NCBI GenBank assembly: GCA_965216755.1
Contig: CBDCGL010000011.1
Location: 1,088,001 to 1,152,000 of the forward strand
Length of the DNA: 64,000 nucleotides
DNA from: Alphaproteobacteria bacterium
GTDB taxonomy: Bacteria; Pseudomonadota; Alphaproteobacteria; UBA7887
Direction: 5' to 3'
Shown here: positions 19,645 through 42,579 of the stretch, in pieces
Layout of the letters: each line of letters begins with the position of its first letter
Numbering within the stretch: position 1 is the stretch's first letter
The notes under the pieces: generated by a model
Seen by the model: the letters and a program-made list of their open reading frames with translations, nothing else
What the model was told of the DNA's origin: nothing
The model's database searches: none
Translations under genes and position numbers: made by a program

Positions 19645-20277
19645 TTATGCCGATGCGCTCGGACGCGCGGTCATGGCGGCATACCAACGCGCGACATTTG
19701 AGCAAGCATCCGGCATAGCAATCTCTGCCCGAGCCGCAAATCCAATCGCACAGGTCAAAGTTATGTCCGCGATGGAGAAGCGGGCGCCTGCCAAAAACTC
19801 ATTTTCCGCCAAGTGCGGGTCGATCTTATGCAAGAATCGATCAACCACGGCCTTGCCACGTTCCACAAGCGCCGGTATCTGCGGCACGCCGCTGGGTTCG
19901 CCGGCAAGCGCACGATCTTCAAACATCGGCGCCGAATTGCGCACGGCGTCGCCGGCTGCCATGAAACCGTGGATCTCCGCCCGACGATCCCACATTTCCA
20001 CGATCGCTTTATCCTTTGCATCCACGCCCATCAATGGCGGCGCGGGCTGTATCTCCTCGAAATAGCGGCAAATCGCCGCAGATTCACCGATCCTCGTCCC
20101 ATCATCGAGTTCGAGAACCGGCACGACAGAGAAAGGGTTCACGGCCCGAAACTCGTCGGAGAATTGCTCACGTTCGCGCGTGTTGACTTGCACCATCGGG
20201 ACTTCGATCGATTTCTCGGCAAGAAACATCCGCACCCGACGTGGATTTGGTGCCAGGCCAAAATCATAGAGCTTCAT
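19645..20277 (-). CDS. Glutathione S-transferase
   Basis: APNPRRVRMFLAEK, VPVLELDDG, ESAAICRY, FSIADIT; GGAGG RBS before ATG 20277. Confidence 0.92.
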   Translation of the reverse strand: MKLYDFGLAPNPRRVRMFLAEKSIEVPMVQVNTREREQFSDEFRAVNPFSVVPVLELDDGTRIGESAAICRYFEEIQPAPPLMGVDAKDKAIVEMWDRRAEIHGFMAAGDAVRNSAPMFEDRALAGEPSGVPQIPALVERGKAVVDRFLHKIDPHLAENEFLAGARFSIADITLTCAIGFAARAEIAMPDACSNVARWYAAMTARPSASA

Positions 20278-20299
20278 ACGGGCCTCCGTTACATATTCT

Positions 20300-21001
20300 T
20301 CAAGTCTCATCCCAATGGAACGTACTGAACGCAGAAACCGGTACGCGTTCAGTCTTCAACGCGTTAGCCGGCGCGGTCTCATCGATAAATCCGATCGACA
20401 TGCCACAAATGACGATCTGGTCATCTGGAATGCCCAAATGCTCGCGCAGCACCTTGTGATAGCGCGCAAAGGCAACTTGCGGACAACTGTGTAGCCCGGC
20501 GCCACGCGCCGCGATCATGATGTTCTCGATGAACATGCCGTAGTCTAGCCAACTGCCGACTTCAAGAACCCGATCCATCGTAAAAATAAGCCCGACTGGG
20601 GCATCAAAAAATTGGTAGTTGCGGGCGACTTGAACCGCCATTTTCTCGCTATCGCCCTTTTTAATCCCGACCAAGCCATACAGATCCCAACCAACTTTGC
20701 GGCGACGGCTTTTGTAAGGTTCGGGAAAATGTGCTGGGTAATACTCAAACTCGGCGTCATGTTCATCGCCATGACGATAGTGGGCCGCAACCAGCGCTTC
20801 GGTTAACTTCCGTTGGGCCGCACCAGAGACAACATGGACTTGCCAAGGCTGCATGTTTGTGCCGCTTGGCGCGCGGCTAGCGACTTCCAGTAAATGCTCA
20901 ACTTGCTCACGGGATACGGGCGTGGGCAAAAACCCACGCACGGAGCGCCGGCTGGTGATGGCCGCATCGACGATCGCGGTCGCGTCTAGAGTGTCAGTCA
21001 T
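20300..21001 (-). CDS. Nitroreductase family protein
   Basis: RRSVRGF, RAPSGTNMQPW, FFDAPVG, GLHSCPQ. Confidence 0.92.
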   Translation of the reverse strand: MTDTLDATAIVDAAITSRRSVRGFLPTPVSREQVEHLLEVASRAPSGTNMQPWQVHVVSGAAQRKLTEALVAAHYRHGDEHDAEFEYYPAHFPEPYKSRRRKVGWDLYGLVGIKKGDSEKMAVQVARNYQFFDAPVGLIFTMDRVLEVGSWLDYGMFIENIMIAARGAGLHSCPQVAFARYHKVLREHLGIPDDQIVICGMSIGFIDETAPANALKTERVPVSAFSTFHWDET

Positions 21002-21060
21002 AGTGGCTCTTCAAAATCAATGTGAAACAACGACGCTTCTGGTCATACGTTCGCAAACCA

Positions 21061-21459
21061 TTAGCTAACCATAAAAACGTCATCGACCGGGACTTTCATT
21101 CCGGTCACCAAGGCATTGGTTTGGTGCGCCATTGCAACAATGGACAACAACTCTTGATATTGTCGTTCGGTCATGCCCTTCGCGCGCGCCGCAGCGGTAT
21201 GGGAATGAATGCAATAGTCGCAACTGTTGGCGATCGACACGGCGATGTAAACAAGCTCCTTGGCCAAGGGATCGATCTCACCCGGCCCCATAACCTGTTT
21301 CAGACGCTGCCAAGTTGCTTCCAACAAGTCCGGCTGGTTCGCCAAGGCCTTCCAAAAATTGTTGATAAAATCCGTGCCGCGCAGTGCACGAATGTCATCA
21401 TAGACTGCGCGCACGCGCAGCGATGCGTCATCGTATTCAATTAGCCCAACAGTCGCCAT
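21061..21459 (-). CDS. Carboxymuconolactone decarboxylase/AhpD-like protein
   Basis: KELVYIAVSIANSCDYCIHSH (CxxC..H). Confidence 0.9.
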   Translation of the reverse strand: MATVGLIEYDDASLRVRAVYDDIRALRGTDFINNFWKALANQPDLLEATWQRLKQVMGPGEIDPLAKELVYIAVSIANSCDYCIHSHTAAARAKGMTERQYQELLSIVAMAHQTNALVTGMKVPVDDVFMVS

Positions 21460-21494
21460 CGCGAGTCCTTTCGTAGTGGAAAACGGGATTGTGC

Positions 21495-22301
21495 TTAACG
21501 GTTGCCGTAACTCTTGCCAAGCCCGGCGGCAGCATCGCTTTGAATGCCGTATTGCGGGATCGGATAACGCAAGCCGTTCGCCGCGAGCCGGGCCATGCCA
21601 TCAATAGCGCCCGCCAGATAGCGTGGCGGCAGCGCCATCAGCAATTCATCTTCTAGAACGCCGCCATAGCGGCGCTCAGCGAAGCAGGGGATCGACAGAC
21701 TGGGTTCGCCCGTGGCCAACGCGCGTCCCCAGGAATCCGCGCAAGAAGACTCGCCGACGCAACCCCATTCCAACTTGCGATACCCGGACCATTGCAGGCC
21801 ATTGACGAGAATAATCATTTGCGCCGGAGTCGCGTAGATCAAGCATATATCCGGGGGGTCGAGCCGGCCCGAAACAAGAGGCGAGACGGCCATCGAACGG
21901 TAACGGCCGTGCGGTACCACGGTCATGGCGGCTTGATGCGCCGCAGAATCCTCATCAGTCGCATACCAGACGCCGGTCATGTGCGCGCCGGATCGCCAGG
22001 TTTCGTCCTGTGGTCGCAAACCCAGGACCGCGCCGCACTGCGCGCTGACCAAATCGTCGGCCGTGATCCCGACTGTCCAACCAAGCCGGCACGCCTGGGC
22101 GACAATCTGATCGGCCGTATGACTCGCACTCGGCCGCCGGATGCGTGGTATCGCCTCCATCTCGGCGACGGTCGCAAACAGTTTCATACCGATGGGCGTT
22201 GTGCGCAGGCGTAAATAGCGGTTGAGACCGTCGACCAAACAGCCCCAATCGTAGGTTGGGTCGCTTTGTGCGTCGGGTCCGTCCAAGTCCGCCGAGACCA
22301 T
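21495..22301 (-). CDS. DUF169 family protein
   Basis: LRTTPIGMK, PDICLIYATPAQM, GESSCAD, SIPCFAERRYG. Confidence 0.8.
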   Translation of the reverse strand: MVSADLDGPDAQSDPTYDWGCLVDGLNRYLRLRTTPIGMKLFATVAEMEAIPRIRRPSASHTADQIVAQACRLGWTVGITADDLVSAQCGAVLGLRPQDETWRSGAHMTGVWYATDEDSAAHQAAMTVVPHGRYRSMAVSPLVSGRLDPPDICLIYATPAQMIILVNGLQWSGYRKLEWGCVGESSCADSWGRALATGEPSLSIPCFAERRYGGVLEDELLMALPPRYLAGAIDGMARLAANGLRYPIPQYGIQSDAAAGLGKSYGNR

Positions 22302-22468
22302 AGTTTCCTCCCACCAAAGCGCTTACCTGCCATGCCTTTACCATGCGTAGGCAAAAAGCGAGAATGCGAATTACGCTTGGCGGACCCGTTGAAACCTCGG
22401 CATGCGCGCCATGTCATACTTCCACAGACGCACTGTCGAGCCTGCCGGTACATGAAGAGGTCCTGACA

Positions 22469-23512
22469 ATGTCGACGCGCCGACCGCTCCCGTTACTGCC
22501 GACGACCGTGGTCGGCAGTTATCCGCAGCCGGATTGGTTGATCGACCGGACCGCGCTGGCCGGTCGCACACCGCCGCGCGTGCGCGCTCACGACCTATGG
22601 CGCATCGACCCGCGTTGGCGGAATGCGGCCCAGGACGATGCCACGCGCCTTGCCATTCACGACATGGAAAACGCCGGCATCGACATCGTGACCGATGGCG
22701 AAATACGGCGTGAAAGCTACTCCAACCCCTTCGCCAATGCGCTCGATGGGATCGACCGCAAGCAAACCGGTATGGGGATCTCGCGACGCGGCGAACCCGA
22801 CCCGGTGCCGCGGGTGATCGCGCCTCTCAAACGTTCACAGCCGTTTTCAACCGACGACATAAAATTCCTGCGCGCGCAGACGGACCGCGTTATCAAAGCG
22901 ACTCTCCCCGGCCCGTTCACCATGTCGCAACAAGCACAAGACAACTATTACAGCGATCCGGCCGCGCTTGCGATGGCATACGCGGCGGTCGTCAACGAAG
23001 AAATCGGTGATATGTTCGCGGCCGGAGCCGATGTCGTGCAACTCGACGAGCCGTTCCTGCAGGCCCGTCCCGAGGCGGCACGCGACTATGGCGTCGAAGC
23101 GGTCAACCGCGCCCTTGACGGGATCACAGGCACAACAGCTTTGCATTTGTGCCTTGGCTATGCGGCTTTGATCAAGAACAAGCCAAACGCCTACGCTTTC
23201 TTGGCAGAACTCGCCAATTGCAGCGTCGACCAGGTTTCCGTTGAGGCCGCACAACCGAAGTTGGATCTTTCGGTATTGCGCGCCCTCGACGGGAAAACGA
23301 TCATCTTGGGTGTTCTCGATCTTAGCGATGCGGCAATCGAAACGCCTGAAAGCGTTGCCAACCGGATCGCTGCGGCGCTCGATCACGTTTCGGCCGATCA
23401 TCTGGTCCCCGCACCGGATTGCGGCATGAAATACCTGCCCCGCAACGTTGCGTTCGGCAAACTCAAAGCCCTGGCCGACGGTGCGGCCATCGTTCGGCGG
23501 AACCTTAGTTAA
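22469..23512 (+). CDS. Cobalamin-independent methionine synthase, catalytic-domain-only (core/MetE-like) Zn enzyme
   Basis: PTTVVGSYP, TDGEIRRE, PGPFT, QLDEP, Zn ligands HLC...E...PDCG; lacks the N-terminal folate barrel. Confidence 0.85.
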   Translation: MSTRRPLPLLPTTVVGSYPQPDWLIDRTALAGRTPPRVRAHDLWRIDPRWRNAAQDDATRLAIHDMENAGIDIVTDGEIRRESYSNPFANALDGIDRKQTGMGISRRGEPDPVPRVIAPLKRSQPFSTDDIKFLRAQTDRVIKATLPGPFTMSQQAQDNYYSDPAALAMAYAAVVNEEIGDMFAAGADVVQLDEPFLQARPEAARDYGVEAVNRALDGITGTTALHLCLGYAALIKNKPNAYAFLAELANCSVDQVSVEAAQPKLDLSVLRALDGKTIILGVLDLSDAAIETPESVANRIAAALDHVSADHLVPAPDCGMKYLPRNVAFGKLKALADGAAIVRRNLS

Positions 23513-23539
23513 CTGCTCGCCCGCCACGCTCGCTTCATC

Positions 23540-23553
23540 TTGATCTGTGTCAA
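23540..23553 (+). promoter_or_regulatory. FNR/FixK-type binding site
   Basis: TTGAT-CTGT-GTCAA (9/10 match to TTGAT-N4-ATCAA), intergenic, 76 bp upstream of the DUF3775 gene. Confidence 0.65.
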
Positions 23554-23629
23554 GGTGCGCCACCGGGCCGCGAGATAAGCGGTCAATTTAGATTGGGTTA
23601 AAGACCCTCGGCAGGGAGTCATTTGGCGC

Positions 23630-24058
23630 ATGGAAATCAAACCTGAGGCCGTGAGTCGCGTCATATTTGCCGCGCGGCAGCTCAACGTCGATGAGGAGGT
23701 TCGTGAGAGCCTCAGTGACGAAGATGATGTCACAAAGGAACCTGAAGAAGTCCTGGATGAGGCTCTCGTTGGCAGTGTCCATCAGGAGCACGAAAAGGAC
23801 CCGGTTTGGTGGGACCTCAAAGCGTTTATTGATGATATGCCCGCCGACGAGCAGTGCGAATTGATCGCGCTTGCTTGGATCGGACGCGGTGACGGCGGCA
23901 AAGTCGACTGGGAGGACATGGTCCGTTTGGCCAGTGAGCGGCGCAGCGATCACACAGCCGAATATCTGATCGGCATGCCGCTATTGGCGGAGTATCTGCA
24001 AAGCGCTCTCGATACATTTGATATTTCGATTGAGGATTTCGAAGAGAATCACATTTAG
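23630..24058 (+). CDS. DUF3775 domain protein
   Basis: ELIALAWIGRGD, YLIGMPLLAEYL. Confidence 0.88.
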   Translation: MEIKPEAVSRVIFAARQLNVDEEVRESLSDEDDVTKEPEEVLDEALVGSVHQEHEKDPVWWDLKAFIDDMPADEQCELIALAWIGRGDGGKVDWEDMVRLASERRSDHTAEYLIGMPLLAEYLQSALDTFDISIEDFEENHI

Positions 24059-24085
24059 TCGTTCACCGTTCCAACAAACAAGGTC

Positions 24086-25018
24086 ATGACCCTGATGCCG
24101 CAAGAGACGGTGCCCGAACCAGGGGCCGCTTTTACTGGTTTGTCGTCTCTCTTCAGCGACTTTTCGCTCGAGGTCACACCGTCCGGCGTCGCCGCATTGT
24201 TGGCCGCACCACCGCTGCCGGCCGAGACCAGGGTCTTCATCACCCATTTGGAGCGAAACAGAGACGCCGATACAATTGAAGCGGCCCGGCGACTACGCCA
24301 AGCGGGTTTGAGGCCCGTTCCCCACTTGGCCGCCCGGCGCATCGCGAATGTCGGCGAACTGCGTGCTCTACTGGACGGCCTCGTCACGGAAGCCGATGTT
24401 GACGAAGTTTTGGTCATAGCGGGGGACACGCCGCCGATCGCCGATCAGTTTCCTTCGACTATCGATTTGTTGCGAACAGGTTTGCTTGAACGCTATGGCG
24501 TTCGTCGAATTAACGTCGCCGGTCACCCAGAAGGCGCGCCGTCTATCCCAGAGATTGAGCTGCAGCGTGCGTTGGACGAAAAGAACGCCTACGCCCGCCA
24601 GAGCGACGCCGAAATGCGGATAATTACCCAGTTCGTCTTCGAAGCGGCACCGCTGATTACCTGGGAGCAACGTATCCGCGCCCGCGGCAATGCGTTACCG
24701 GTTTGTGTTGGCCTTGCTGGATTGGCCGGCATCAAGTCACTCGTACGGCATGCGCGGGCTTGTGGCGTCGGTGCGTCGGTGCGAACGCTCATGCGTCAAG
24801 GGGCGCGTTTGTCGCGGCTTGTCCGGCCTTATGATCCAGGGCCAATTGTGTCGGATCTCTCGGAAGCTCGTCGGAGTGATCCAGAGTCACTGATAGACGG
24901 CATTCACTTTTTCCCATTCAGTGGGATCTCGCGGACGGTCGCATGGGCGACAGGGATCAGCGATGGCTCAATTGCGCTGGACGGTTCATTGACTCCTATC
25001 GGGAATATCCGCACCTAA
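24086..25018 (+). CDS. metF: Methylenetetrahydrofolate reductase (MetF-like)
   Basis: SLEVTP, PVPHLAARR, VAGHPEG, IITQFVF, GIHFFPF. Confidence 0.85.
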   Translation: MTLMPQETVPEPGAAFTGLSSLFSDFSLEVTPSGVAALLAAPPLPAETRVFITHLERNRDADTIEAARRLRQAGLRPVPHLAARRIANVGELRALLDGLVTEADVDEVLVIAGDTPPIADQFPSTIDLLRTGLLERYGVRRINVAGHPEGAPSIPEIELQRALDEKNAYARQSDAEMRIITQFVFEAAPLITWEQRIRARGNALPVCVGLAGLAGIKSLVRHARACGVGASVRTLMRQGARLSRLVRPYDPGPIVSDLSEARRSDPESLIDGIHFFPFSGISRTVAWATGISDGSIALDGSLTPIGNIRT

Positions 25019-25115
25019 TCGACGTTCCGGATGGCACCGCGAAGCTCCGATTTCAATTGGTCCGGTGCGCCGCTACACTGGCGCCCAAGCGACCACGAAA
25101 GCGGAGCATGAAGCG

Positions 25116-26369
25116 ATGCCTGGACCACTCACGGGGATAAAGATCATCGACCTGACCTCGATGTTATCGGGGCCTTGGGCGACGACCATATTGGCCGACC
25201 AGGGTGCGGACGTGGTCAAGGTCGAGGTCCCGGGCAAAGGCGACCACACGCGCTCTCTGGGAAACCGGCGCGCTGGGATGTCTTCAAGTTTCCTCCATAT
25301 CAACCGTAACAAGCGGTCTCTCACGTTGAACCTGAAAGCCGATCAGGGCCGCGCAGTATTCCTTGACCTGGTGCGTGACGCGGACGTTGTGGTGCAGAAC
25401 TTCCGCCCCGGTGTGGTTGATCGGCTAAGGGTCGGCTATGACGATGCGCGTGCCGCAAATCCAAGCATCGTCTACCTATCGCTCAATGGCTTCGGCGAAT
25501 CCGGACCCTATGCCCAGAAGCCCGTATACGATCCCGTCATCCAAGCGATATCGGGCCTCACCACAATCCAGGCGGGATCCGATGACGAGCGGCCACGGCT
25601 GGTGCGCACCGTGTTGCCGGACAAACTCTCCGCGGTGACGGCCTCGCAAGCCATTACCGCGGCACTGTTCGCGCGCGAACGAACCGGCCGGGGCCAACAT
25701 GTGAAACTCTCCATGCTCGACGCCGTGATGTCGTTCTTATGGGCTTCAGACTACGGCGCGCAAACCTATCCGGATCAGCCGACCACCAATCAAGCTGCGG
25801 CGAGTTTCATCGACCTGATTTACGAGACCAAGGACGGCCATATGACAGTCGCCGTCATGAGCGACAAGGAATGGACCGGTCTGACGCAAGCATTCAACAA
25901 ACCCGAATGGTTGACGGATGAGCGCTTTGCCACGCCCGAGGCGCGCGATCGCAATGTCAATGCGCGCTTGCAATTGACCCAGGAGGTGTTGCGGACGAAG
26001 ACGACTGCTGAATGGCTGACCGTGCTGGAACGCGCCGGCGTTCCCTGCGCGCCAGCCCTCACCCGAAACCAAGCCATACAGCATCCACAAATCGTGGCAA
26101 GCGAGATTGTGCAGGAATACAGCCACCACGCGGCCGGAAAACTGCGTCAAACGCGGAACGCGGCACGATTTGAAGGCACGCCGACCGAGCTACGTTTCGG
26201 CGCACCTCTCCTGGGCGAGCACACCGATGAGATCATGCGGGAACTTGGATATGATGAGGACGCGATTTGCGCGCTCCGTCGGGATGGCGTAATCGGCGGC
26301 GAATCCGCGTCTCAGAGGGGTTCGGCCGACAGTGATCAGACGCCAACTTTGCGATCGGCCAGAACCTGA
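25116..26369 (+). CDS. Class III CoA-transferase (CaiB/BaiF family)
   Basis: GPLTGIKIIDL, LADQGADVVKVE, NRNKRS, QNFRPGV, YDPVIQAISG, PLLGEHT. Confidence 0.93.
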   Translation: MPGPLTGIKIIDLTSMLSGPWATTILADQGADVVKVEVPGKGDHTRSLGNRRAGMSSSFLHINRNKRSLTLNLKADQGRAVFLDLVRDADVVVQNFRPGVVDRLRVGYDDARAANPSIVYLSLNGFGESGPYAQKPVYDPVIQAISGLTTIQAGSDDERPRLVRTVLPDKLSAVTASQAITAALFARERTGRGQHVKLSMLDAVMSFLWASDYGAQTYPDQPTTNQAAASFIDLIYETKDGHMTVAVMSDKEWTGLTQAFNKPEWLTDERFATPEARDRNVNARLQLTQEVLRTKTTAEWLTVLERAGVPCAPALTRNQAIQHPQIVASEIVQEYSHHAAGKLRQTRNAARFEGTPTELRFGAPLLGEHTDEIMRELGYDEDAICALRRDGVIGGESASQRGSADSDQTPTLRSART

Positions 26370-26478
26370 CATACATCTAGCATACTAGAACATTGCCTCG
26401 GTCGCTGGCTTTCTGGTACGATAAAATTGGGTAGGTTGTTCGACCGCATTTGGCGCATTGGGGAAGGAAGCTCGTGCG

Positions 26479-27120
26479 ATGAGCCACATAGTGGACCTTG
26501 GGCGACGCGTCGAACTGGTTCCGATCGATTCGCATTTTCACGACATCACGATCGGCCTCTATCTTGAGCGACAAGACGCTGAACAAGGCGTCTATTCGGT
26601 GCACAGTTACAGTCAGTTGGATGGAACGGATGGGCGCCTCAACCATGTGGCGCAGGCCATGGTCGCGCTCGGCGGCATGCAACGGTGCGACGGTGTTCGC
26701 CCGTCGCTGGTGTTTCCCTGCAAAAAGTTGCACCTGGCAGCGGCGAAACGGGTTTTTCTGGAGGCGTGTAAGGTCCCGTTCGATGCCAAGCCCACGGCAA
26801 GAAGTTCTTCCATTTTCGACAAAAAAGCGGACGGAACGATGCATGTCCGATCGGAAGGCGCCGGCGCCTATCGTGTTACTTGCGACCAGGACGATGAAAA
26901 GGCGTCCAAGCGCATCGCCGCGATTGCCGGCGGATTTGCCAAGTTGCTGGAAATGGAACGCGTCGGCGATGACGCCATCTGTTTCGGCTGTGGCCAGCCC
27001 CATGACGTATTGGTCAACCTATTGTTGCCGCGCGCGCTGAATGTGCGGGCGGCAATGCGCGAACAGGAACAACAAGCCGCCCGCGGTGTGCTCGCGGCGC
27101 CCAGCGCGCAAAGTCTTTGA
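26479..27120 (+). CDS. Hypothetical protein with two internal repeats ending FxCxxxH
   Basis: Clean ORF immediately before the methyltransferase genes; FPCKKLH and FGCGQPH. Confidence 0.7.
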   Translation: MSHIVDLGRRVELVPIDSHFHDITIGLYLERQDAEQGVYSVHSYSQLDGTDGRLNHVAQAMVALGGMQRCDGVRPSLVFPCKKLHLAAAKRVFLEACKVPFDAKPTARSSSIFDKKADGTMHVRSEGAGAYRVTCDQDDEKASKRIAAIAGGFAKLLEMERVGDDAICFGCGQPHDVLVNLLLPRALNVRAAMREQEQQAARGVLAAPSAQSL

Positions 27121-27157
27121 ATCTCTGGTGAGTGGCACCGATTAGGGAACAACCATC

Positions 27158-28207
27158 ATGACCACCGCAGCTGTACCATCGATGACAAGCCGTGAACGCG
27201 TTCTTGCCGCGCTCAACCGAGAACCGGTCGATCGGACGCCGGTCTGCAATCCGACATCCGTGGCAACCATTGAGCTGATGGACCTTGTCAATGCGCCGTT
27301 TCCGATGGCCAATCGGGATCCCGAAATGATGGCTCGATTGGCGGCGACGAGCTACACCGAGCTGGGCTTTGATTCGGTCATGCCGGTGTTCTCGATCATT
27401 CAAGAATCGTCGGCGATGGGCTGCAAAATGCAGTGGGAACAAAAAGACAATTGGCCGACCGTACGCATGAGCGAACCAATCTTCCACGATGTCGACGACA
27501 TCGTCATCCCGAATGACTTCTTGATGCATCCGGACATCACATGCGTCCTGGACGCCATCAAGATCCTTCGCCGGGAACTGGGCGACGAGGTGGCCATTAT
27601 CGGCAAAACGATGGGCCCATGGACAATGGCCTACCACTGTTTTGGCGTCGAGCCGTTCTTGTTGATGACCCTCGACGATCCCGGGAAGACCAAGCAGGTG
27701 CTGGATCGGTTGAAGGAGATGACCGTGCTGTTTGGGCAAGCGCAAATTGACGCCGGCGCCGACGCATTGACCCTACCCGACCATGCCACGGGCGACCTGG
27801 TCAGCGGCGAATATTACGCGCGCTTTCTCAAGGATCTTCATATCGAAATGGTTGAACGGATCCCGATCCCACTCATTCTTCACATTTGCGGGCGTACGGT
27901 TGATCGAATGGGTTACATTGCCGAAACCGGTATGGCGGCGTTCCATTTCGATTCCAAGAACAAGCCCAAGGAATCCATGGACGCGGTGCATGGCGATATT
28001 GCCCTGGTCGGGAATATCAACAACCCGGAGACGCTGTTCGTCAAAGATCCGGAAGCGGTCCACGAAGAGGTTTTGCGGAATCTTGAAGCCGGCGTGCACC
28101 TGATCGGTCCCGAATGTGCGATCCCATTGCAGACCCCGATCGAGAATTTGCTGGAAATCCAGCGCACGATCAGAGAATGGCATGCAGCACATCCATCAGT
28201 ACACTAA
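27158..28207 (+). CDS. MtaA/CmuA-family Zn-dependent corrinoid methyltransferase (UroD fold)
   Basis: MTSRERVLAAL..EPVDRTPV, GPWT, AQIDAGAD, ILHICG and GPECAIP (HxC...C Zn ligands), GNINN. Confidence 0.88.
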   Translation: MTTAAVPSMTSRERVLAALNREPVDRTPVCNPTSVATIELMDLVNAPFPMANRDPEMMARLAATSYTELGFDSVMPVFSIIQESSAMGCKMQWEQKDNWPTVRMSEPIFHDVDDIVIPNDFLMHPDITCVLDAIKILRRELGDEVAIIGKTMGPWTMAYHCFGVEPFLLMTLDDPGKTKQVLDRLKEMTVLFGQAQIDAGADALTLPDHATGDLVSGEYYARFLKDLHIEMVERIPIPLILHICGRTVDRMGYIAETGMAAFHFDSKNKPKESMDAVHGDIALVGNINNPETLFVKDPEAVHEEVLRNLEAGVHLIGPECAIPLQTPIENLLEIQRTIREWHAAHPSVH

Positions 28208-28239
28208 CCACCTTTCGCAAATCCAGCATGTAGATAATC

Positions 28240-28989
28240 ATGGCGGAACTTAACGATATCGCCAACGAGGTAATTCGCGACGAGATTGCGGAATACCTTG
28301 AACGGCCAGAAGAAATTGAACGCAATATTGAGTTGTTCGCCCGTGCGAAGCCACTCATGCAGGACATCGCAGCGGCGATCGTCGAAGGCGATGACGACGT
28401 GGTCGATCAATTGACGGCGAAGGCCCTGGGCGAAGGCATCGACGCGATCGAAGTGATGGATGACGGTTTGATCGCCGGCATGGGCATCGTCGGAATCAAG
28501 TTTCGGGAAATGTTCATTTTTGTGCCCGAAGTACTTGCATGTGCGCGTGCCATGAAGGCGGGCATGACCCATATCGAACCTATTCTTTCGGCGTCGGGGG
28601 TCGAGCCGCTGGGTAAGGTCATCATGGGCACGGTCAAGGGCGACCTGCACGACATTGGCAAGAATTTGTGCATCATGATGTTGCGCGGGGCAGGATTTGT
28701 GGTCGTCGATTTGGGTGTTGATCAATCGGATGACAATTTCATCGATGCGATTGAAGAGCACGAGGCACCGTTGGTCGGCATGTCGGCCCTGCTCAGCACG
28801 ACCATGCCCAATATGGGCAAGATCATCGAAGCCTTCATCGATGCCGGTATACGTGATGACGTGCAGGTCATGGTCGGCGGTGCGCCGGTAACGCAAGAAT
28901 TCGCTGACGATATGGGCGCCGACGGATACGCAAAAGATGCATTGGCGTGTGTCGACCTTGCGAAATCCCTCGTTAGTGCGAACGCCTAG
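28240..28989 (+). CDS. Corrinoid (B12-binding) methyl-carrier protein, MtaC/MttC-like
   Basis: Cap domain (GLIAGM..VG..F, FVPEVL), GTVKGDLHDIGKN (DxHxxG), SALLSTT, VGGAP. Confidence 0.95.
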   Translation: MAELNDIANEVIRDEIAEYLERPEEIERNIELFARAKPLMQDIAAAIVEGDDDVVDQLTAKALGEGIDAIEVMDDGLIAGMGIVGIKFREMFIFVPEVLACARAMKAGMTHIEPILSASGVEPLGKVIMGTVKGDLHDIGKNLCIMMLRGAGFVVVDLGVDQSDDNFIDAIEEHEAPLVGMSALLSTTMPNMGKIIEAFIDAGIRDDVQVMVGGAPVTQEFADDMGADGYAKDALACVDLAKSLVSANA

Positions 28990-29004
28990 AGCGGCAGCGC
29001 GGTC

Positions 29005-29319
29005 GTGGCAAAGATCGACAAAGACGCATATCAGAGACGCTTGGAAAAGATTAGCGAGCTGTTTACCGACATGGTCGCCCATGCCGAAAAGGTGTCGCAG
29101 TTTCGCTGTCCGTACCGCAATAAGGCCGATCGCTGTACTGCCGAATTCCGCTGTCGAAACCAGAAAGATCCGGGTTCGCCAGACGAGCCTTTCATTTGTA
29201 GCCATGACGGCACGTTCGACCACCGCACGGCGTGGGAAACCAAGCCCAGCAGCCGTCGTCGCGCAAAACAAAGAATTCGTGACATAAAATCCGCCGCGGC
29301 GCAAAAGCGTCAGAAATAG
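29005..29319 (+). CDS. Small Cys-rich hypothetical protein
   Basis: RCPYRNKADRCTAEFRCRNQ...ICSHDG; tightly packed between the corrinoid and activator genes. Confidence 0.65.
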   Translation: MAKIDKDAYQRRLEKISELFTDMVAHAEKVSQFRCPYRNKADRCTAEFRCRNQKDPGSPDEPFICSHDGTFDHRTAWETKPSSRRRAKQRIRDIKSAAAQKRQK

Positions 29320-29332
29320 CGGATAGAGTGAC

Positions 29333-30970
29333 GTGAGCACGGTTAGCCACGACCGTTGCGAAGCCGCGCCCGCCCCTGGCAGGACTCTGTTCGATTATGC
29401 GGATGAACTGGCGCTTGAGGTACCAACCTCGTGCCATCGCACCGGCCGGTGCCACGAATGTGTCGTGGAAGTGACCCGCGGTATGGATGCGCTAAGCGCG
29501 CCGACGGCATCGGAATCGTTTCTGCGGGATAACTACCGGCTGGCGTGCCAAGCGATCATCGAGAATATCCAAAGCGACATTGCCTTCACGCCTTTGCGTC
29601 GAAGACCACGCGTCTTGACGATTGGTGCTGACGCGCCGGATGGGACACTGGCGCCCCTCGTCACGCGGGCGAATGACCAAGTCCTCTATGACGGTAAAGT
29701 CATCGACCAATATCGCGGTCATATCTGTGGCCTGGCTGTCGACGTCGGAACAACAACAGTTGTCGTTGACTTGGTTGATTTGGAAACTGGAAGGAGTATC
29801 CAGACACGGGGATTTGAGAACCCGCAACGTTTCGCCGGCAGCGATATCATGCAGCGGATCGTCTATGACGGCGGACCCAATCGCGGTCGCCTCCAAGAAT
29901 CGGTGATCGCGGCGATCAACCGCGAACTGCGCACGATCGCGCGCGATCTGCATATTCCACGGCGCGCGATCTACGAAATCGTTGTCGCCGGGAACTCCAC
30001 CATGCGCGACATATTGTTTGGCCTCGATGTGCAGAGCATCGGTCAGAAGCCCTATAAGTCGGTGGTTGAGAGCGAATATCTCTCCGGACAGCGCGCGCAC
30101 ACGGCTTTATGTGGCAATGCCTGGCAATTGGGCGTGCGCGCCAATCGGCATGCAACTGTGTATGGTTTGCCCTTAATCGCTAGTCACGTGGGTGCCGACG
30201 CAGCCGCGGCGTTGGTTACCGCCGGGATGACCGAACCGACGGGTGAAACCGCGATGCTTATTGACATGGGCACCAATAGTGAAGTCGTGTTGCGCCATCG
30301 TGGAAAGCTGTTCGCTGCCTCATGCCCGGCCGGCCCGGCGTTCGAGGGGGGGTTGGTGAAATATGGCATGCCAGCCTGCGACGGGGCGATTGAAGCTATT
30401 TCCGTCGCCAATGGCGGACAGGGCTTTGCCTACCACACTATTGGCGATGTACCGCCAGAAGGGCTATGCGGATCGGGCCTGATTGACCTATTGGCCGAAC
30501 TGCGCCAGCACGAACGCCTCACTGCCAAAGGGGTGTTCGCCGAGGATCGCAAGAAGTTTGAAATAACGGTTGTACCTGACCGTGGCATCACGTTTTCAAA
30601 GGAGGACGCCAGTAACTTGGCGCAGGCGAAAGCGGCCAGCTATTGCGGCCAGCGCGTTTTGATGCAAACGGCCGGTGTCACACCGGCCGATATCGATCGA
30701 ATGTATCTCGCGGGTGGTTTCGCGAACTATGTTGACGTCAGCAATGCGATTGCCATCGGCCTTTTGGCTCCAGTACCAGAGGAACGCATCATCAAGGTCG
30801 GCAATGCCGCCATTCGCGGTACGCGCGCCGTCCTGTTGTCGAAAATAGCGCGCCGAAACCTTGAGCTCAGCGTCCAGGCGATCGCTCATGTTGAACTTGA
30901 AACGTCGCCTTCATTTTTCGACATGTTCGTCGAAGGTTGCCAATTCAAACCGATGCCCACCGCGAAATAG
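29333..30970 (+). CDS. ATP-dependent reductive activator of corrinoid proteins (RACE; [2Fe-2S] + ASKHA)
   Basis: CHRTGRCHEC...RLACQ, AVDVGTTT, IDMGTNSE, AGPAFEG, GLCGSG, LAGGF. Confidence 0.92.
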   Translation: MSTVSHDRCEAAPAPGRTLFDYADELALEVPTSCHRTGRCHECVVEVTRGMDALSAPTASESFLRDNYRLACQAIIENIQSDIAFTPLRRRPRVLTIGADAPDGTLAPLVTRANDQVLYDGKVIDQYRGHICGLAVDVGTTTVVVDLVDLETGRSIQTRGFENPQRFAGSDIMQRIVYDGGPNRGRLQESVIAAINRELRTIARDLHIPRRAIYEIVVAGNSTMRDILFGLDVQSIGQKPYKSVVESEYLSGQRAHTALCGNAWQLGVRANRHATVYGLPLIASHVGADAAAALVTAGMTEPTGETAMLIDMGTNSEVVLRHRGKLFAASCPAGPAFEGGLVKYGMPACDGAIEAISVANGGQGFAYHTIGDVPPEGLCGSGLIDLLAELRQHERLTAKGVFAEDRKKFEITVVPDRGITFSKEDASNLAQAKAASYCGQRVLMQTAGVTPADIDRMYLAGGFANYVDVSNAIAIGLLAPVPEERIIKVGNAAIRGTRAVLLSKIARRNLELSVQAIAHVELETSPSFFDMFVEGCQFKPMPTAK

Positions 30971-30983
30971 CGAGGAAAAACTG

Positions 30984-32039
30984 ATGTCCGCGTCAGCTCA
31001 TTCAGATAGCCCACTTATTGTTATTGGTGAAAATATTCATACGACACGCGTGGTCCTGCGTCGCAGCAAGCGGTTTCACGAGGACAACGGTTTCGAGGCG
31101 ATTCGATATCAAACCGTCGACGGTGAGGAACGATTGTTGCCGGTCCCCGATACTATGAAGAACACGCAGGACTATGCTGAAGGACGGATGAAGCATGTCG
31201 CCATCGCGGTCAATACGGCCATGGGCAAAACGGATACGGATCCTGAAGAAGGCATGCTGTATTTGCGCCGTCTGGTTCACGATCAGGAACAGGCTTGCGC
31301 CGATTTCCTCGATGTCAATGTTGACGAAATTGCGATCAAAGACGAAGAACGTCTGGCCGCCATGCAGTGGCTCGCGCGTACAGTCGAGGCAATGACGGAT
31401 CTGCCGCTTGCCATCGATTCATCAAGCATTGAAGTGATCGAAGCAGGTTTGGACGTGCTCGACCGCCATGGCGGCCGGCCGATGCTGAATTCGGCATCGT
31501 TGGAGCGTTTGGACGCCTTGGATATCGCCCGGAAATGGGATACGCAGGTCGTGGTGACGGCTGCGGGTGAAGCCGGCATGCCCGACGGTACCGCACAACG
31601 TGTGGAGAACGCTTCGCGCATGGTTGACGCCGCACAAGACAAAGGCATTGCCCTGTCAGATATTTATATCGACCCGCTCATCTTCCCGATTTCGGTGGAC
31701 CAAGAAAGCGGCAATCATTGCCTCGATGCAATCCGAGCCTTGCGCGAAAAATACGGCCCAGAGATTCACATCACCGGCGGTATGAGCAATGTCTCCTTCG
31801 GCATCCCGGCCAGGCTGATTATCAACGATGTTTTTTTGCTGCTGGTCATGGATGCCGGCGCCGATAGCGGCATCATCGATCCTGTGTTGACCCCGCCGGC
31901 CAAACTGCGGCAAGTCGATCGTGAAACGCAAGCGTACAAACTTGCCGAAGATCTTTTGCTAGGGCGCGACAAGGACTGTCGCACTTTCATTCGCGCCTGG
32001 CGGAAGAAAACCCTCGGCTCGCTTCATGGCCAGCCCTGA
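30984..32039 (+). CDS. Methylcorrinoid:tetrahydrofolate methyltransferase (AcsE/MetH pterin-binding family)
   Basis: VIGENIH, DFLDVN, LAIDSS, LNSAS, YIDPL, GMSNVSFG; GAGGA RBS. Confidence 0.88.
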   Translation: MSASAHSDSPLIVIGENIHTTRVVLRRSKRFHEDNGFEAIRYQTVDGEERLLPVPDTMKNTQDYAEGRMKHVAIAVNTAMGKTDTDPEEGMLYLRRLVHDQEQACADFLDVNVDEIAIKDEERLAAMQWLARTVEAMTDLPLAIDSSSIEVIEAGLDVLDRHGGRPMLNSASLERLDALDIARKWDTQVVVTAAGEAGMPDGTAQRVENASRMVDAAQDKGIALSDIYIDPLIFPISVDQESGNHCLDAIRALREKYGPEIHITGGMSNVSFGIPARLIINDVFLLLVMDAGADSGIIDPVLTPPAKLRQVDRETQAYKLAEDLLLGRDKDCRTFIRAWRKKTLGSLHGQP

Positions 32040-32069
32040 CGGACCGTACCACGACGTCGATAGCCAATG

Positions 32070-32912
32070 TCATGACTGTTGCATCAGTGCCTTGTCAGCG
32101 GTTGACAGGCACACGCGGTTGCGACCGCCACCTTTGGCCTCGTAAAGCGCCGCATCGGCACGCCGCAGCGGCCCAGTAATCTCCGTGTCTCGATTCGATA
32201 TCGTGGCGACGCCAATACTGACGGTCAGGGACAAGACCCGGTCGCCAACCACCAGCGGCTCTGCCGCAATTTCAGTCCGCAGCAGCTCAGCAATCTCATA
32301 CGCCTCGCGCCTGTCGGCTCGCTCCAGAAGGATAACAAATTCCTCACCGCCATATCGGGCCAGAACATCGCTTTCTCGCAAAGTACGTGTGCAGATTTGC
32401 GCGATGTGGCGAAGCGCCGCATCGCCAACACCGTGACCATGGGTGTCGTTGACCGCCTTGAAGTGATCGGCGTCCAGAAATGCGAAAGATAACGGCGTCC
32501 GGAACCGCCGCGCGGCCCGAAAGGCATGGTTCGCAATTTCCATAAAATGTCGCCGATTATAGAGACCCGTGAGTTCGTCGCGTGTCGTCAATTCCTTGAG
32601 TGCAACCTCGGATTGCTCTCGGCGTTCGATTTCCTTCTTTAGCTGGAGCGCTCGGTGGAGCAGTTCCGAACGCTCGGATGCGAGGTCTCGGCCAAACACC
32701 AGGAAATAGTAGACGATCGGTGGGGTTAGCAGGACTGGAATGAAGATCGGCAGCAGAATGGCGGTCGACTGGGTGAAGGATATGGGTTCCCATATCCAAT
32801 AGGCCAAATAGCAGACCGTCACGGACACAATGACGCAGATGATCGAGAAGATCAGCGCGCCTTGAACCGGGCTCAGTCGCTCTACACATCCGCGAAAGAA
32901 CAACGCCATCAC
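32070..32912 (-). CDS. Membrane-anchored diguanylate cyclase
   Basis: Two TM helices, coiled coil, DELTGLYNRR, RESD I-site, GGEEF. Confidence 0.93.
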   Translation of the reverse strand: MMALFFRGCVERLSPVQGALIFSIICVIVSVTVCYLAYWIWEPISFTQSTAILLPIFIPVLLTPPIVYYFLVFGRDLASERSELLHRALQLKKEIERREQSEVALKELTTRDELTGLYNRRHFMEIANHAFRAARRFRTPLSFAFLDADHFKAVNDTHGHGVGDAALRHIAQICTRTLRESDVLARYGGEEFVILLERADRREAYEIAELLRTEIAAEPLVVGDRVLSLTVSIGVATISNRDTEITGPLRRADAALYEAKGGGRNRVCLSTADKALMQQS

Positions 32913-33163
32913 ACTGAGATAGCGCGAGGTCCTTAGCTTCCAACCCGGATTGGTACTGTTCCAAACGCCACCTTTCTCTTCCGTTGCGGCGAAAGCTCAC
33001 GGAATTCAGATTAGTTGTGCAAAGTTCGTTGAAATTTTTGCGATAATGACTGCGCAACCAACCCTTTTTGGTGCGTTTCGGAAAATCGAAGACCACCCGA
33101 GCGCCAGAGAGCCGCGACCAGTACCGGTCGAAATTTCGGTTTTTGGCGGATTCCGTGGATTCC

Positions 33164-33244
33164 GTGACAGTTTACCAAATTAACAAAATAATGTGCCCAC
33201 AAGATATTAACACACCAAATATTGTGTATTAAGTAAACTGTCAC
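33164..33244. repeat. AT-rich 81-bp element bounded by inverted repeats
   Basis: GTGACAGTTTAC (33164-33175) / GTAAACTGTCAC (33233-33244); the TG...CA core is flanked by CCG on both sides. Confidence 0.7.
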
Positions 33245-33488
33245 CGTAATAGAAAAGATAATACGAGATCGGCGGCGTTATCAGCGCGGGCACAAGAATG
33301 GGCAACATCATTGCAAGCGGCTCGGAGAACGATCTGTGCAACCATAACGCGTACATTGGGAAACACATGGCCACCGAGCCGGTCACTGAAATCACCGTGA
33401 ATAGCAACGCTCCCCGTATCGGGGTCAAACGTTGTATCGATTGCCGGGATCTTGGGGTCATCAAGATGAGATAGTGCACAAATCGCAC
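33207..33488 (-). pseudogene. Truncated paralog of the TM region of the adjacent diguanylate cyclase
   Basis: RLTPIRGALLF...LPILVPALITPPISYY aligns by eye with RLSPVQGALIF...LPIFIPVLLTPPIVYY of 32070-32912; no GGDEF domain follows. Confidence 0.7.
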
Positions 33489-33514
33489 TAACCCATCAGA
33501 ACTAGGCTGAACGG

Positions 33515-34084
33515 CTAAGCGCTGCCCGACTGGCCAGCCGCCAACTCGTAGCCGCGCGCAAGCGCCGCTAGATTCAATTTGTGGAGTTTCTCGGGCAAAT
33601 CACCGCGAACCGCGTCTGCCAACGCGTCACGCGGGCACAGTTCCGTGTGTCCCGCTAGTGCGCCCAGCGCAACGATGTTCGTCGCACGAACAGAGCCCAG
33701 TGAGATTGCCGTCGCACGCAAAGGCAGTGGGTACACCTTGAATTGTCCGTTGGGTGGCGATGTTACGCACTCGCTGTCGACAAAGACGACCGCGTTCTCT
33801 TTGATCAGCCCTTCCGAAGCGGCGACCGCGACCTGATCCAGCACCAGCAGCGCATCGAGACCCGTAACCAACGGCCAATCGATCGGCTTGTCGTCGATGA
33901 CCAGGTCGGCCCGGCTAAGGCCCCCGCGCGACGTGGGCTCATAACTCTGCGATTGCGCGACATAGCGTCCGTTTACCGCCAAAGCCTGAGCAATGATGCG
34001 TGCCACCAACTGCAGGCCCTGGCCACCCGCACCGCTGAGCCGCAACTGGATCAGTCCGGCTTGTCCGTTACTGGGATTTATCAC
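33515..34084 (-). CDS. 2-oxoacid:ferredoxin oxidoreductase gamma subunit
   Basis: RLSGAGGQG, QSYEPTSRGG, NIVALGAL, NLAAL..GY; start trimmed to GTG 34084. Confidence 0.88.
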   Translation of the reverse strand: MINPSNGQAGLIQLRLSGAGGQGLQLVARIIAQALAVNGRYVAQSQSYEPTSRGGLSRADLVIDDKPIDWPLVTGLDALLVLDQVAVAASEGLIKENAVVFVDSECVTSPPNGQFKVYPLPLRATAISLGSVRATNIVALGALAGHTELCPRDALADAVRGDLPEKLHKLNLAALARGYELAAGQSGSA

Positions 34085-34919
34085 GTCGCTCCTGCTTGTC
34101 GCGCATGGCATGCCGATAGCTGGCGCCGTATTCGGGGCGGTTGTTGCGAGCCAAAACGCCGGTCCGCCCAGGGTTGGGCCGAAAAGGCTGATCGACTGTG
34201 TTGTCATAAACGTCTGGACGCATTGCGCTTTTTTGGCTGAGAACCATTTCCGCCGACGAGCCCAACTCGTTCTTTCGCCCATATATCTCGGTGCAGTCTG
34301 AGATGATCTCGATAAACGAGAAGCCGGGATGGGCGAAGCCCTCTTTGATCAGGTTTTTGAGAGCCGGCGTTTCCAGCGTGACACCGCGGCCGACAAAGCC
34401 CGCGCCGGCCGCCTCGGCCAGACCACAGGCATCAAACGATGGCTCGTGGTTGCCAGTTGGCGTCGTGGTCGTGAGCCGGCTATCCGCGGTCGTGGGCGAG
34501 ACTTGCCCCCCGGTCATACCGTAGACCTCGTTGTTCAACATCAGGCAGGTGAGATCGAGATTACGCCGACAAGCGTGAATCAAGTGATTGCCGCCGATCG
34601 CGAGGCAGTCGCCATCTCCCGTGATCACGGCGACCCTTAGGTCAGAACGTGCCAAGGCCAGCCCGGTCGCGAACGCAAGTGGCCGGCCATGGGTCACATG
34701 GAACGTATTGGCATCGATATAGGCCCCAAGCCGGCCCGAGCAGCCGATTCCCGATACCACCGCAAGGCGATCTTTGGTAATTCCGAGCTCGTGGACGGCC
34801 CAAAGCATCGCCCGCAATGCAATACCGTGACCGCAGCCCGGACACAGAAAGTGCGGCATCATGTCGTGACGCAGATAGGACCGAATGTCGAATTGGTCGG
34901 GCTGCTTGCTGCGCATCAC
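34068..34919 (-). CDS. 2-oxoacid:ferredoxin oxidoreductase beta (TPP-binding) subunit
   Basis: CPGCGHG, SGIGCS, GDGD..IGGNH, NNEVYGMTGGQ. Confidence 0.93.
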   Translation of the reverse strand: MMRSKQPDQFDIRSYLRHDMMPHFLCPGCGHGIALRAMLWAVHELGITKDRLAVVSGIGCSGRLGAYIDANTFHVTHGRPLAFATGLALARSDLRVAVITGDGDCLAIGGNHLIHACRRNLDLTCLMLNNEVYGMTGGQVSPTTADSRLTTTTPTGNHEPSFDACGLAEAAGAGFVGRGVTLETPALKNLIKEGFAHPGFSFIEIISDCTEIYGRKNELGSSAEMVLSQKSAMRPDVYDNTVDQPFRPNPGRTGVLARNNRPEYGASYRHAMRDKQERRDKSQ

Positions 34920-36064: not shown

Positions 36065-36067
36065 GGC

Positions 36068-36985: not shown

Positions 36986-36988
36986 CGT

Positions 36989-42440: not shown

Positions 42441-42504
42441 GGGGTATCTCCTTATGATTGCCGATGGGACTATAACGCACCGCAGCATGAATCCCAACTG
42501 AAGA

Positions 42505-42572
42505 TAACTGTAAAAATGTAACTGAGTAAAACTTGAAAATATTATGGCTCCATCTTTGTCAATTTTGTAAAA
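42505..42572. promoter_or_regulatory. AT-rich aceA/ramB divergent promoter with repeated TGT(C/A)AA boxes (probable RamB operator)
   Basis: TTTGTCAA (42555-42562), TTTGTAAA (42564-42571), TGTAAA/TGTAAC near 42509-42522. Confidence 0.45.
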
Positions 42573-42579
42573 TATTCGG

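Follow-up and report, generated by a model that had tools for sequence, protein, structure and literature searches.

Demethylation by corrinoid-dependent enzymes is classically associated with strict anaerobes. The locus described here raises the question of what a compact set of such genes does in an oxygen-respiring alphaproteobacterium, and on which methylated compound it acts. The window, a stretch of 64,000 nucleotides of contig CBDCGL010000011.1 (assembly GCA_965216755.1, positions 1,088,001 to 1,152,000), contains ten co-oriented genes at positions 22469-32039, in which the original prediction saw a complete corrinoid-dependent methyl-transfer system of an O2-exposed alphaproteobacterium. 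All ten genes indeed lie on the plus strand, with families as assigned by Pfam and NCBIfam. The taxonomic placement fits the best sequence matches, and exposure to O2 fits the presence of four heme-copper oxidase (COX1) genes in the genome, which is 5.0 Mb in size and 99.8% complete.

Comparison of related loci reduced the conserved unit to the last six genes (26479-32039), two of which encode proteins without any known family. The cassette belongs to the multi-component methyltransferases that depend on a corrinoid, and two unannotated conserved components set it apart from those known. In the explanation that we favor, with a confidence slightly short of even, its MtaA-like zinc enzyme demethylates a small sulfur (or selenium) compound and places the methyl group on a Co(I) corrinoid protein, from which a pterin-dependent enzyme passes it to tetrahydrofolate (THF).

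Conserved gene block and its distribution

Gene families were assigned by hidden Markov model (HMM) scans of Pfam and NCBIfam with curated cut-offs, and two starts were reset by reading the sequence, to ATG 26479 for the first cassette gene and to ATG 30984 for the last. The first gene encodes an orphan protein of 213 amino acids (aa) outside any Pfam or NCBIfam family (26479-27120, labeled 'unk220'). It is followed by genes for an MtaA/CmuA-family zinc methyltransferase of the UroD fold (27158-28207; URO-D, 230.8 bits; TIGR01463), which is the predicted substrate-side methyltransferase (MT1), and for a corrinoid-binding methyl carrier (28240-28989; B12-binding_2 PF02607 and B12-binding PF02310). 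Next come a second orphan, a 104-aa protein with four conserved cysteines that likewise has no Pfam or NCBIfam family (29005-29319), and a RACo-type ATP-dependent reductive activase with an N-terminal [2Fe-2S] domain (29333-30970; Fer2, Raco_middle and RACo_C_ter). The last gene encodes a pterin-binding methylcorrinoid:THF methyltransferase of the AcsE/CmuB/MtgD kind, the predicted exit enzyme (30984-32039; Pterin_bind PF00809, 78.4 bits). The coordinates leave gaps of 13-37 bp between the six genes, with the pterin methyltransferase starting 13 bp past RACo; the gap between the preceding CoA-transferase gene and the 213-aa gene is 109 bp. The four-component design recognized by the original prediction, i.e. 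a methyltransferase, a corrinoid protein, a second methyltransferase and an ATP-dependent activase, is thus present with all parts adjacent.

A scan of one genome per species yielded 28 loci encoding a relative of the methyltransferase. Twenty-seven of these carry orthologs with 64-83% identity; the remaining locus (L032) encodes a 43% identical paralog. The gene content of each locus was determined by tblastn with all genes of the window and by profile searches of six-frame translations. The titles of the respective metagenome-assembled genomes (MAGs) name Alphaproteobacteria, Rhodospirillaceae, Dongiaceae, Acidimicrobiia, Gemmatimonadota, Latescibacterota, Dehalococcoidia/Chloroflexota or simply 'bacterium', and indicate sea water, (deep) lakes, groundwater and sponges as habitats. 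All 27 orthologous loci encode the corrinoid protein, 26 have the four-cysteine gene, and 25 have RACo, which is absent from L009 and cut off by the contig edge in L015. The 213-aa gene stands directly upstream of the methyltransferase in 25 loci, in one of them (L014) with a frameshift. The two orphan genes, which the original prediction had listed as extras, are therefore among the most conserved parts of the system.

By contrast, none of the four upstream genes of the window (core-MetE-like, DUF3775, MTHFR-like and CoA-transferase) is found beside the cassette in any of the 27 orthologous loci. In the window's own family the six genes occur in the same order in 12 of 12 loci, at least three of which are on the same contigs as loci counted above, and the upstream four occur in none. 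The same is true of all five loci from two further alphaproteobacterial families, one of them truncated by the end of its contig and two being duplicates of loci already counted. Since the block recurs across loci without the upstream four, the conserved unit, as judged from sequence comparison, is the six genes at 26479-32039, and the upstream four are lineage-specific neighbors; the ten-gene unit originally proposed does not hold.

The 213-aa gene is present in 20 of the 22 other genomes of the window's family and in none of 18 genomes from 18 other families, and it was detected in 7 of 400 other alphaproteobacterial genomes, belonging to three families. At the same time, the methyltransferase and the corrinoid protein remain 61-84% identical over at least five phyla. 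The cassette is thus a compact and apparently horizontally spread module that is nearly universal in one alphaproteobacterial family. No description of it was found in searches of full-text literature outside subscription-only papers.

Various genes flank the cassette in individual lineages, in particular those for 2-hydroxyacid dehydrogenase, LarA-like, IlvD/Edd-like, O-methyltransferase and enolase-superfamily proteins. Genes of D-2-hydroxyacid dehydrogenases or of LarA-like proteins (lactate racemase family) adjoin it in several unrelated lineages (L007, L028-L030, L049, L069 and L071), and an IlvD/Edd-family dehydratase together with a PF01596 O-methyltransferase flanks it in marine alphaproteobacterial loci (L010, L012, L013 and L031). 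In six loci of the window's family (L006, L046, L047, L049, L051 and L052) the pterin methyltransferase is followed, about 1.1 kb from the cassette, by a CobW/COG0523 GTPase (PF02492 and PF07683), a candidate metallochaperone for the zinc enzyme or for cobalamin.

Zinc methyltransferase and the corrinoid machinery

The methyltransferase scored above the cut-offs of the family-level models TIGR01463 mtaA_cmuA (256 bits, cut-off 235.4) and PRK06252 (NF004889; 260 bits, cut-off 244) and below those of the equivalog models for MtaA (NF040654, 236.3 bits, cut-off 400) and MtbA (NF041608, 197.2 bits, cut-off 600). Its closest relative of solved structure is the methanogen MtaA (4ay7), with 186.9 bits over residues 8-335. 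All 13 aligned orthologs retain the zinc ligands H242-x-C244...C320, which are in register with LHICG and P-x-C of MtaA 4ay7. The placement of the protein relies on the HMM scores and on pairwise values to MtaA and CmuA, the latter (from pCMU01) giving 25% identity and 38 bits; its H-x-C...C motif aligns with that of the cassette enzyme. Orthologs of the methyltransferase are 64-84% identical across phyla. Some, encoded in metagenomes, are fused to a corrinoid protein, namely P0402-P0404 (619-634 aa, 74-75% identity, with both B12-binding_2 and B12-binding domains) and P0116; the fused P0403 is 26% identical to CmuA. A tblastn search of plasmids with the methyltransferase found distant UroD/HemE genes only, with at most 27% identity.

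In the account of Kountz & Balskus (bioRxiv 2023), a His-Cys-Cys site marks the S- and Se-methyltransferases of this superfamily, and O-demethylases carry carboxylates. Relatives of the MtsA and MtpA type have been reported to demethylate thioethers (bioRxiv 10.1101/548461). Sequence kinship and the type of zinc site both suggest that the enzyme acts on a methyl-S or methyl-Se compound.

The corrinoid protein has the D-x-H-x-x-G motif (DLHDIG in the translation), is 61-83% identical in related loci and shows 31.5% identity to CmuA by tblastn. The activase contains the three domains expected of RACo, i.e. the [2Fe-2S] ferredoxin domain, the middle domain and the ASKHA C-terminal domain (PF00111, 35.1 bits; PF17651, 137.1 bits; PF14574, 231 bits), all above their cut-offs. 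It is not an AcsV equivalog, since it scored 288 bits with the AcsV exception model, the cut-off of which is 800. The pterin methyltransferase scored 205 bits with PRK07535, below the cut-off of 259. It is the only free-standing enzyme of this kind in the genome, the other two Pterin_bind matches being a FolP-like gene and MetH.

A second corrinoid cluster is present in the same genome outside the window (L003:297-3609 and L004:1-3153), with its own RACo (662-aa frame), so that the genome has two RACo genes. It also encodes a corrinoid protein of 212 aa, two divergent UroD-family proteins (385 and 379 aa), a 207-aa protein and a BHMT-like homocysteine S-methyltransferase (PRK07534, 421 bits, cut-off 338), and it has no pterin methyltransferase of its own. 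The 207-aa protein was considered as a possible relative of the 213-aa protein and rejected (hhalign probability 0.2).

Exit enzyme and probable direction of methyl flow

The methyltransferase and the corrinoid protein are constant partners, and the second methyltransferase varies between lineages. Thirteen of the 27 orthologous loci (Alphaproteobacteria and Acidimicrobiia) have a pterin methyltransferase gene no more than 100 bp from RACo. A homocysteine S-methyltransferase (PF02574) is found within 500 bp in 11 loci (Gemmatimonadota, Latescibacterota, Dehalococcoidia and unclassified bacteria), two of which have both enzymes, so that it is the only neighboring second methyltransferase in nine; two further loci are cut by contig ends. 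Beside the homocysteine enzyme, in all 11 loci (L019-L026 and L028-L030), there is a gene for a small 'Virulence_fact' protein (PF13769, ~90-140 aa). In three loci (L006, L051 and L052) a divergent metV-metF pair is located 90-620 bp from the cassette.

Whole-genome searches of four genomes of the homocysteine type (G225, G426, G428 and G429) found no free pterin methyltransferase; their pterin modules are those of a FolP-like protein and of full-length MetH only. If these four genomes, for which no completeness is given, are representative, the MtaA-like enzyme is the sole candidate for loading the corrinoid protein there. It thus most likely acts as the substrate-side MT1, a role that the original prediction had assigned to it and that is the one best supported by the comparative data. 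The alternation of THF and homocysteine as exits would represent a plug-and-play logic around one corrinoid carrier.

A three-step scheme can be proposed on this basis. In the first step, the MtaA-like MT1, perhaps together with the 213-aa protein, would transfer the methyl group of the substrate to Co(I), yielding CH3-Co(III). In the second, the pterin methyltransferase would pass it to THF, giving methyl-THF, or, in other phyla, the homocysteine enzyme would form methionine. In the third, RACo would use ATP to re-reduce Co(II) to Co(I) after oxidative inactivation, with the four-cysteine protein as an added metal or electron-entry module; such rescue would be needed often in an oxygen-respiring cell. 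The MetF2-like paralog encoded upstream in the window may then oxidize methyl-THF to methylene-THF for assimilation or energy.

Two conserved orphan proteins

Of the 768 homologs of the 213-aa protein, those with a name are all 'hypothetical', and no Pfam domain occurs among the 120 listed. When 1.84 billion representative sequences were searched with a profile, only 319 clusters were retrieved, and no link to another family emerged; none of the 150 clusters listed exceeds 359 aa. No usable match was obtained in a Protein Atlas search. The AlphaFold2 (AF2) model is of good quality (predicted local distance difference test, pLDDT, 89.6; predicted template modeling score, pTM, 0.85) and shows a tandem beta3-alpha-beta2-alpha repeat. 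Each repeat contains a near-invariant F-x-C-x3-H motif: C81, H85 and C171 are conserved in at least 90% of the sequences, and H175 is invariant. The first motif is absent from the Dehalococcoidia sequences inspected.

A Foldseek search of PDB with this model gave no match at E <= 0.001. The best candidate from VIA, urea carboxylase (Z 7.4, residues 2-103, half of the model), was within the background of unmatched models, and so were the lesser HIT, BMC-shell and ACT-like candidates; therefore no fold was assigned. One apparent fusion of the 213-aa protein with a URO-D domain (P0341) is a 345-aa fragment with an unmatched middle part, probably resulting from a frameshift, and no credible fusion was found. 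We infer that the 213-aa protein assists MT1, perhaps by delivering the substrate, by gating or by handling zinc.

In the four-cysteine protein, C35, C44, C50 and C65 are invariant in 19 of 19 sequences and lie between two long helices. Most lineages have a strongly basic C-terminal tail, which is missing in Dehalococcoidia. A profile of the protein had no match to PDB sequences at E <= 10, and a Pfam search with the same threshold gave scattered rows at chance level only. The Protein Atlas search returned only 'hypothetical' clusters of the protein's own family, and the AF2 model is poor (pLDDT 67.7). In five loci (L006, L019, L023, L024 and L025, frame offsets checked) the four-cysteine protein and RACo share one stop-free reading frame. 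The four-cysteine protein thus belongs with the activation machinery and not with the substrate side, and is predicted to be a metal or Fe-S accessory of the activase.

Candidate substrates and alternative explanations

Several observations weigh against the proposed transfer from a methylated sulfur or selenium compound to THF. The 213-aa gene was not found in two of the 27 orthologous loci (L008 and L009), and L009 holds the methyltransferase and the corrinoid protein alone. No cassette protein has a named ortholog, and the flanks, varying by lineage, point to no substrate. The argument on direction rests on MAGs with completeness not given. In addition, the small Dehalococcoidia genomes G222-G224 encode a free pterin methyltransferase on a different contig, with no open reading frame (ORF) of MetH length seen, and because of this enzyme elsewhere the corrinoid protein could have a split-MetH role there. 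The zinc site does not exclude halides either, because CmuA keeps the H-x-C...C motif. When a methyl-pterin donates its methyl group to a thiol, about 30 kJ/mol are released (the Mtr reaction is an example), and hence transfer from a thioether or thiol to THF is uphill. Thermodynamics thus favor an activated donor (a halide or a sulfonium) or the reverse direction in the loci of the THF type. As for the substrate, a methyl thioether or thiol (dimethyl sulfide (DMS), methylmercaptopropionate (MMPA) or methanethiol) can be suggested only tentatively, a methyl halide is doubtful, and a sulfonium such as dimethylsulfoniopropionate (DMSP) and a methyl selenide are each improbable.

If the flow were reversed, the pterin enzyme would load the corrinoid from methyl-THF supplied by MetF-like enzymes, and the MtaA-like enzyme would methylate a thiol or selenol other than homocysteine (e.g. 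sulfide, methanethiol or a thiol metabolite), much as coenzyme M is methylated by MtaA. This explanation agrees with the thermodynamics of the transfer. It also agrees with the activity of the close characterized relatives MtaA and MtbA, which are methylcobamide:thiol methyltransferases, with the His-Cys-Cys site, a classic thiolate-activating one, and with the adjacency of the pterin methyltransferase in 13 of 27 loci and of metV-metF or a MetF2-like gene near some. The homologous pterin enzyme MtgD is bidirectional, as argued from mutant growth by Mausz et al. (PNAS 2025). However, the nine loci with only the homocysteine enzyme, taken with the four genomes without a free pterin methyltransferase, would then have two acceptor enzymes and no donor. 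Moreover, an ATP-consuming, oxygen-sensitive system would be costly for thiol methylation, and the reported thioether demethylation by MtsA- and MtpA-type relatives goes in the opposite direction. We consider the reversed flow unlikely, yet deserving serious attention. A slightly lower probability is given to an unfused, RACo-equipped system of the chloromethane type, in which CH3Cl, CH3Br or CH3I would donate the methyl group to the corrinoid and further to THF, a thermodynamically easy reaction. Such a system would share the cmu parts list (an MtaA/CmuA-family methyltransferase, a corrinoid domain, a pterin methyltransferase and a MetF paralog) and the H-x-C...C motif, orthologs with the fused architecture of CmuA exist, and the hosts come from sea water, lakes, groundwater and sponges according to the MAG titles. 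On the other hand, the enzyme is far closer to MtaA than to CmuA by the bit scores given above, and there is no cmuC, folD or purU beside the cassette. The anaerobic Cdm is described as close to O-demethylases, with hydrophobic channeling of haloalkanes (Nat Commun 2026), and trace levels of halomethanes would be hard to square with a six-gene constitutive trait of a family.

The original prediction had named a split MetH serving methionine synthesis as an outcome that would refute it. In such a system, the corrinoid protein, the pterin methyltransferase and the activase would work with the core-MetE-like protein, and the MtaA-like enzyme would be a second homocysteine- or thiol-side module. 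The first three of these components are present, and the cassette of the window has no PF02574 gene. The core-MetE gene lies 3 kb upstream on the same strand, and a homocysteine methyltransferase is adjacent in 11 loci. In the small Dehalococcoidia genomes, for which the pterin search gave no MetH-length ORF, the cassette corrinoid protein may serve methionine, and a split enzyme has a precedent in Ruegeria and Phaeobacter (Mausz et al. PNAS 2025). But the window genome has its own canonical metF (307 bits) beside metH (1213-aa ORF) elsewhere, and the cassette is thus unlikely to be required for methionine as a housekeeping split MetH; full-length MetH is also encoded in G225, G226, G426, G428 and G429. 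The core-MetE gene, one of five paralogs, is beside the cassette nowhere else, and the MtaA-like enzyme and the two orphans, the three most conserved specific genes, would be left without a role. All this makes the split methionine synthase very improbable. Demethylation of a small sulfur or selenium compound with transfer to THF or homocysteine remains our preferred explanation.

Comparison with known systems

In the literature surveyed, the only aerobic corrinoid demethylase systems described are cmu and the MtgBCD hub. The cassette resembles the soluble methylcobamide:coenzyme M methyltransferases of methanogens (MtaA, with MtbA and the MtsA/MtpA kind) in the UroD fold, the TIGR01463 score, the His-Cys-Cys site and the separate corrinoid protein with DxHxxG. 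It differs from MtaA and MtbA in falling below their equivalog cut-offs and in residing in an oxygen-respiring bacterium. In contrast to methanogen MtaA, its enzyme pairs with a THF or homocysteine methyltransferase and not with an MT1 of the MtaB/MttB type, and its predicted role is on the donor side.

With the cmu system of Methylorubrum extorquens CM4 (CmuA/CmuB/MetF2, pCMU01) the cassette has in common an aerobic alphaproteobacterial host, the methyltransferase family, the corrinoid domain, and, at the level of family only, a pterin methyltransferase of the CmuB kind (PF00809) and a nearby MetF paralog (weak PF02219). However, the methyltransferase is not a CmuA ortholog and is separate from the corrinoid protein, and RACo and two orphan genes are added. 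The difference in layout from cmu noted in the original prediction is thus borne out.

The anaerobic O-demethylases and Cdm similarly combine a UroD-superfamily methyltransferase I, a corrinoid protein, a pterin methyltransferase II and a RACo-type activase. Cdm homologs are described mainly from Bacillota and Asgardarchaeota, as an anaerobic, O-demethylase-like system (Nat Commun 2026). Against these systems the cassette has aerobic hosts, two additional conserved orphan genes, and a His-Cys-Cys site in place of the carboxylate or non-coordinating site of O-demethylases as described by Kountz & Balskus (bioRxiv 2023). The type 1 mlp clusters, for which the same authors propose methyl-S/Se chemistry, are comparable in this respect. 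As described there, they contain at least Mlp2 and Mlp3, have no THF methyltransferase and belong to obligate anaerobes, whereas the cassette includes a single UroD gene, a methyltransferase for THF or homocysteine and two orphan genes, and its hosts are aerobes.

Its closest functional analog, to judge by the shared components, is the MtgBCD(E) hub of Ruegeria pomeroyi (Mausz et al. PNAS 2025). According to this work, the hub operates in aerobic Alphaproteobacteria with a free corrinoid protein, a pterin-THF methyltransferase, an ATP-dependent activase (RamA), MetF2 and an optional homocysteine exit, and no protein was induced more strongly than MetF2 when betaine was demethylated by the corrinoid-dependent route. 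Methyl groups enter the hub through a betaine methyltransferase of the MttB family, whereas here the entry enzyme would be a UroD-family zinc enzyme with two orphan partners; the hub genes are scattered and those of the cassette are clustered. The window genome keeps a full MetH and has no MttB: PF06253, missing from the window in the original prediction, was not found genome-wide at 99.8% completeness, MtaB and MtmB not having been searched for.

Upstream genes and genome context

The upstream four genes are those of a core-MetE-like zinc methyltransferase (22469-23512; Meth_synt_2 PF01717, 113 bits), followed by a gap of 117 bp, a DUF3775 protein (23630-24058; PF12616, 87.9 bits), a divergent methylenetetrahydrofolate reductase (MTHFR) paralog of the MetF2-like type (24086-25018; PF02219, 35.9 bits only) and a class III (CaiB/Frc-type) CoA-transferase (25065-26369; CoA_transf_3 PF02515, 381 bits).

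Homologs of the MetF2-like gene with 29-45% identity were found in 36 of 200 other alphaproteobacterial genomes, and 6 of 11 homolog loci that were fetched adjoin RACo-like, pterin methyltransferase or corrinoid genes. By these neighborhoods, the paralog of the window is part of a MetF2-like set apparently tied to corrinoid methyl transfer, and is predicted to interconvert methyl- and methylene-THF. It is one of three MTHFR paralogs of the genome, together with canonical metF. The proposal that it oxidizes the methyl groups fits in kind with these neighborhoods in other Alphaproteobacteria. The gene adjoins the cassette in none of the other loci examined. The CoA-transferase, which had been thought to handle the residual acid, scored below the cut-offs of all equivalog models. 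Since its only homolog near another cassette is in L045 (32% identity), this role has no comparative support.

The closest PDB entry to the core-MetE protein is the MesD structure 3rpd (198 bits, phmmer). The genome contains five Meth_synt_2 (core-MetE-like) genes besides MetH. Price et al. (2021, PMC7857596) recognize MesD by at least 390 bits in BLASTp and an adjacent DUF1852 (MesX) gene. The protein of the window, at 198 bits, is not of the MesD type by these measures; its scanned neighbors are DUF169 and DUF3775, and no DUF1852 gene is adjacent, the search for it not having been genome-wide. The core-MetE gene is a neighbor in the window genome only, and its link to the cassette is a putative one.

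In a search of positions 20000-34000 against Rfam, no riboswitch or other element was found; the two matches obtained were below threshold and at chance level. Promoter-like sites were not enriched over shuffled sequences (4 against a shuffle mean of 6.5), and 20 terminator-like sites were counted against a shuffle mean of 13.9 (standard deviation 4.1).

Divergently from the core-MetE gene, on the minus strand at 19645-22301, are genes for glutathione S-transferase (GST), nitroreductase, carboxymuconolactone-decarboxylase-family and DUF169 proteins. Just downstream of the cassette, the minus strand (33515-38845) carries two gene sets for POR/IOR-like 2-oxoacid:ferredoxin oxidoreductases with 4Fe-4S domains, which this genome has alongside its four heme-copper oxidases. 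The window further contains the glyoxylate-shunt genes for malate synthase G and isocitrate lyase (11695-14100 and 41157-44013), the latter adjoining a divergent ScfR-type regulator gene (HTH and M78 peptidase). The G+C content drops to 0.453 at positions 4001-6000, over a 786-aa ORF (3639-5999), compared with 0.53-0.61 elsewhere.

Implications

An aerobic cobalamin-dependent 'DMS methyltransferase' was proposed in 1993 and, by the account of a 2019 paper on Methylophaga (PMC6548844), still had no gene. The cassette bears directly on this missing enzyme. That it is the long-sought cobalamin-dependent methyltransferase route for compounds of the DMS or methanethiol type (or for methyl halides) in oxygen-respiring bacteria, with the two orphans as obligatory subunits, is a bold proposal that we regard as unlikely, but its consequences would be considerable. 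The 213-aa tandem-repeat protein would act with the zinc methyltransferase on the substrate, and the four-cysteine protein would be a new module for electron entry, through which RACo could sustain a Co(I) enzyme in the presence of air; the in-frame fusion of this protein with RACo offers a handle on how aerobes keep such enzymes active. The cassette would then remove volatile methyl compounds from oceans, lakes and sponge microbiomes, as a widespread sink that has gone unrecognized. Once its substrate is identified, the sulfur, selenium or halogen cycle and the one-carbon cycle of oxic waters would gain a further pathway.

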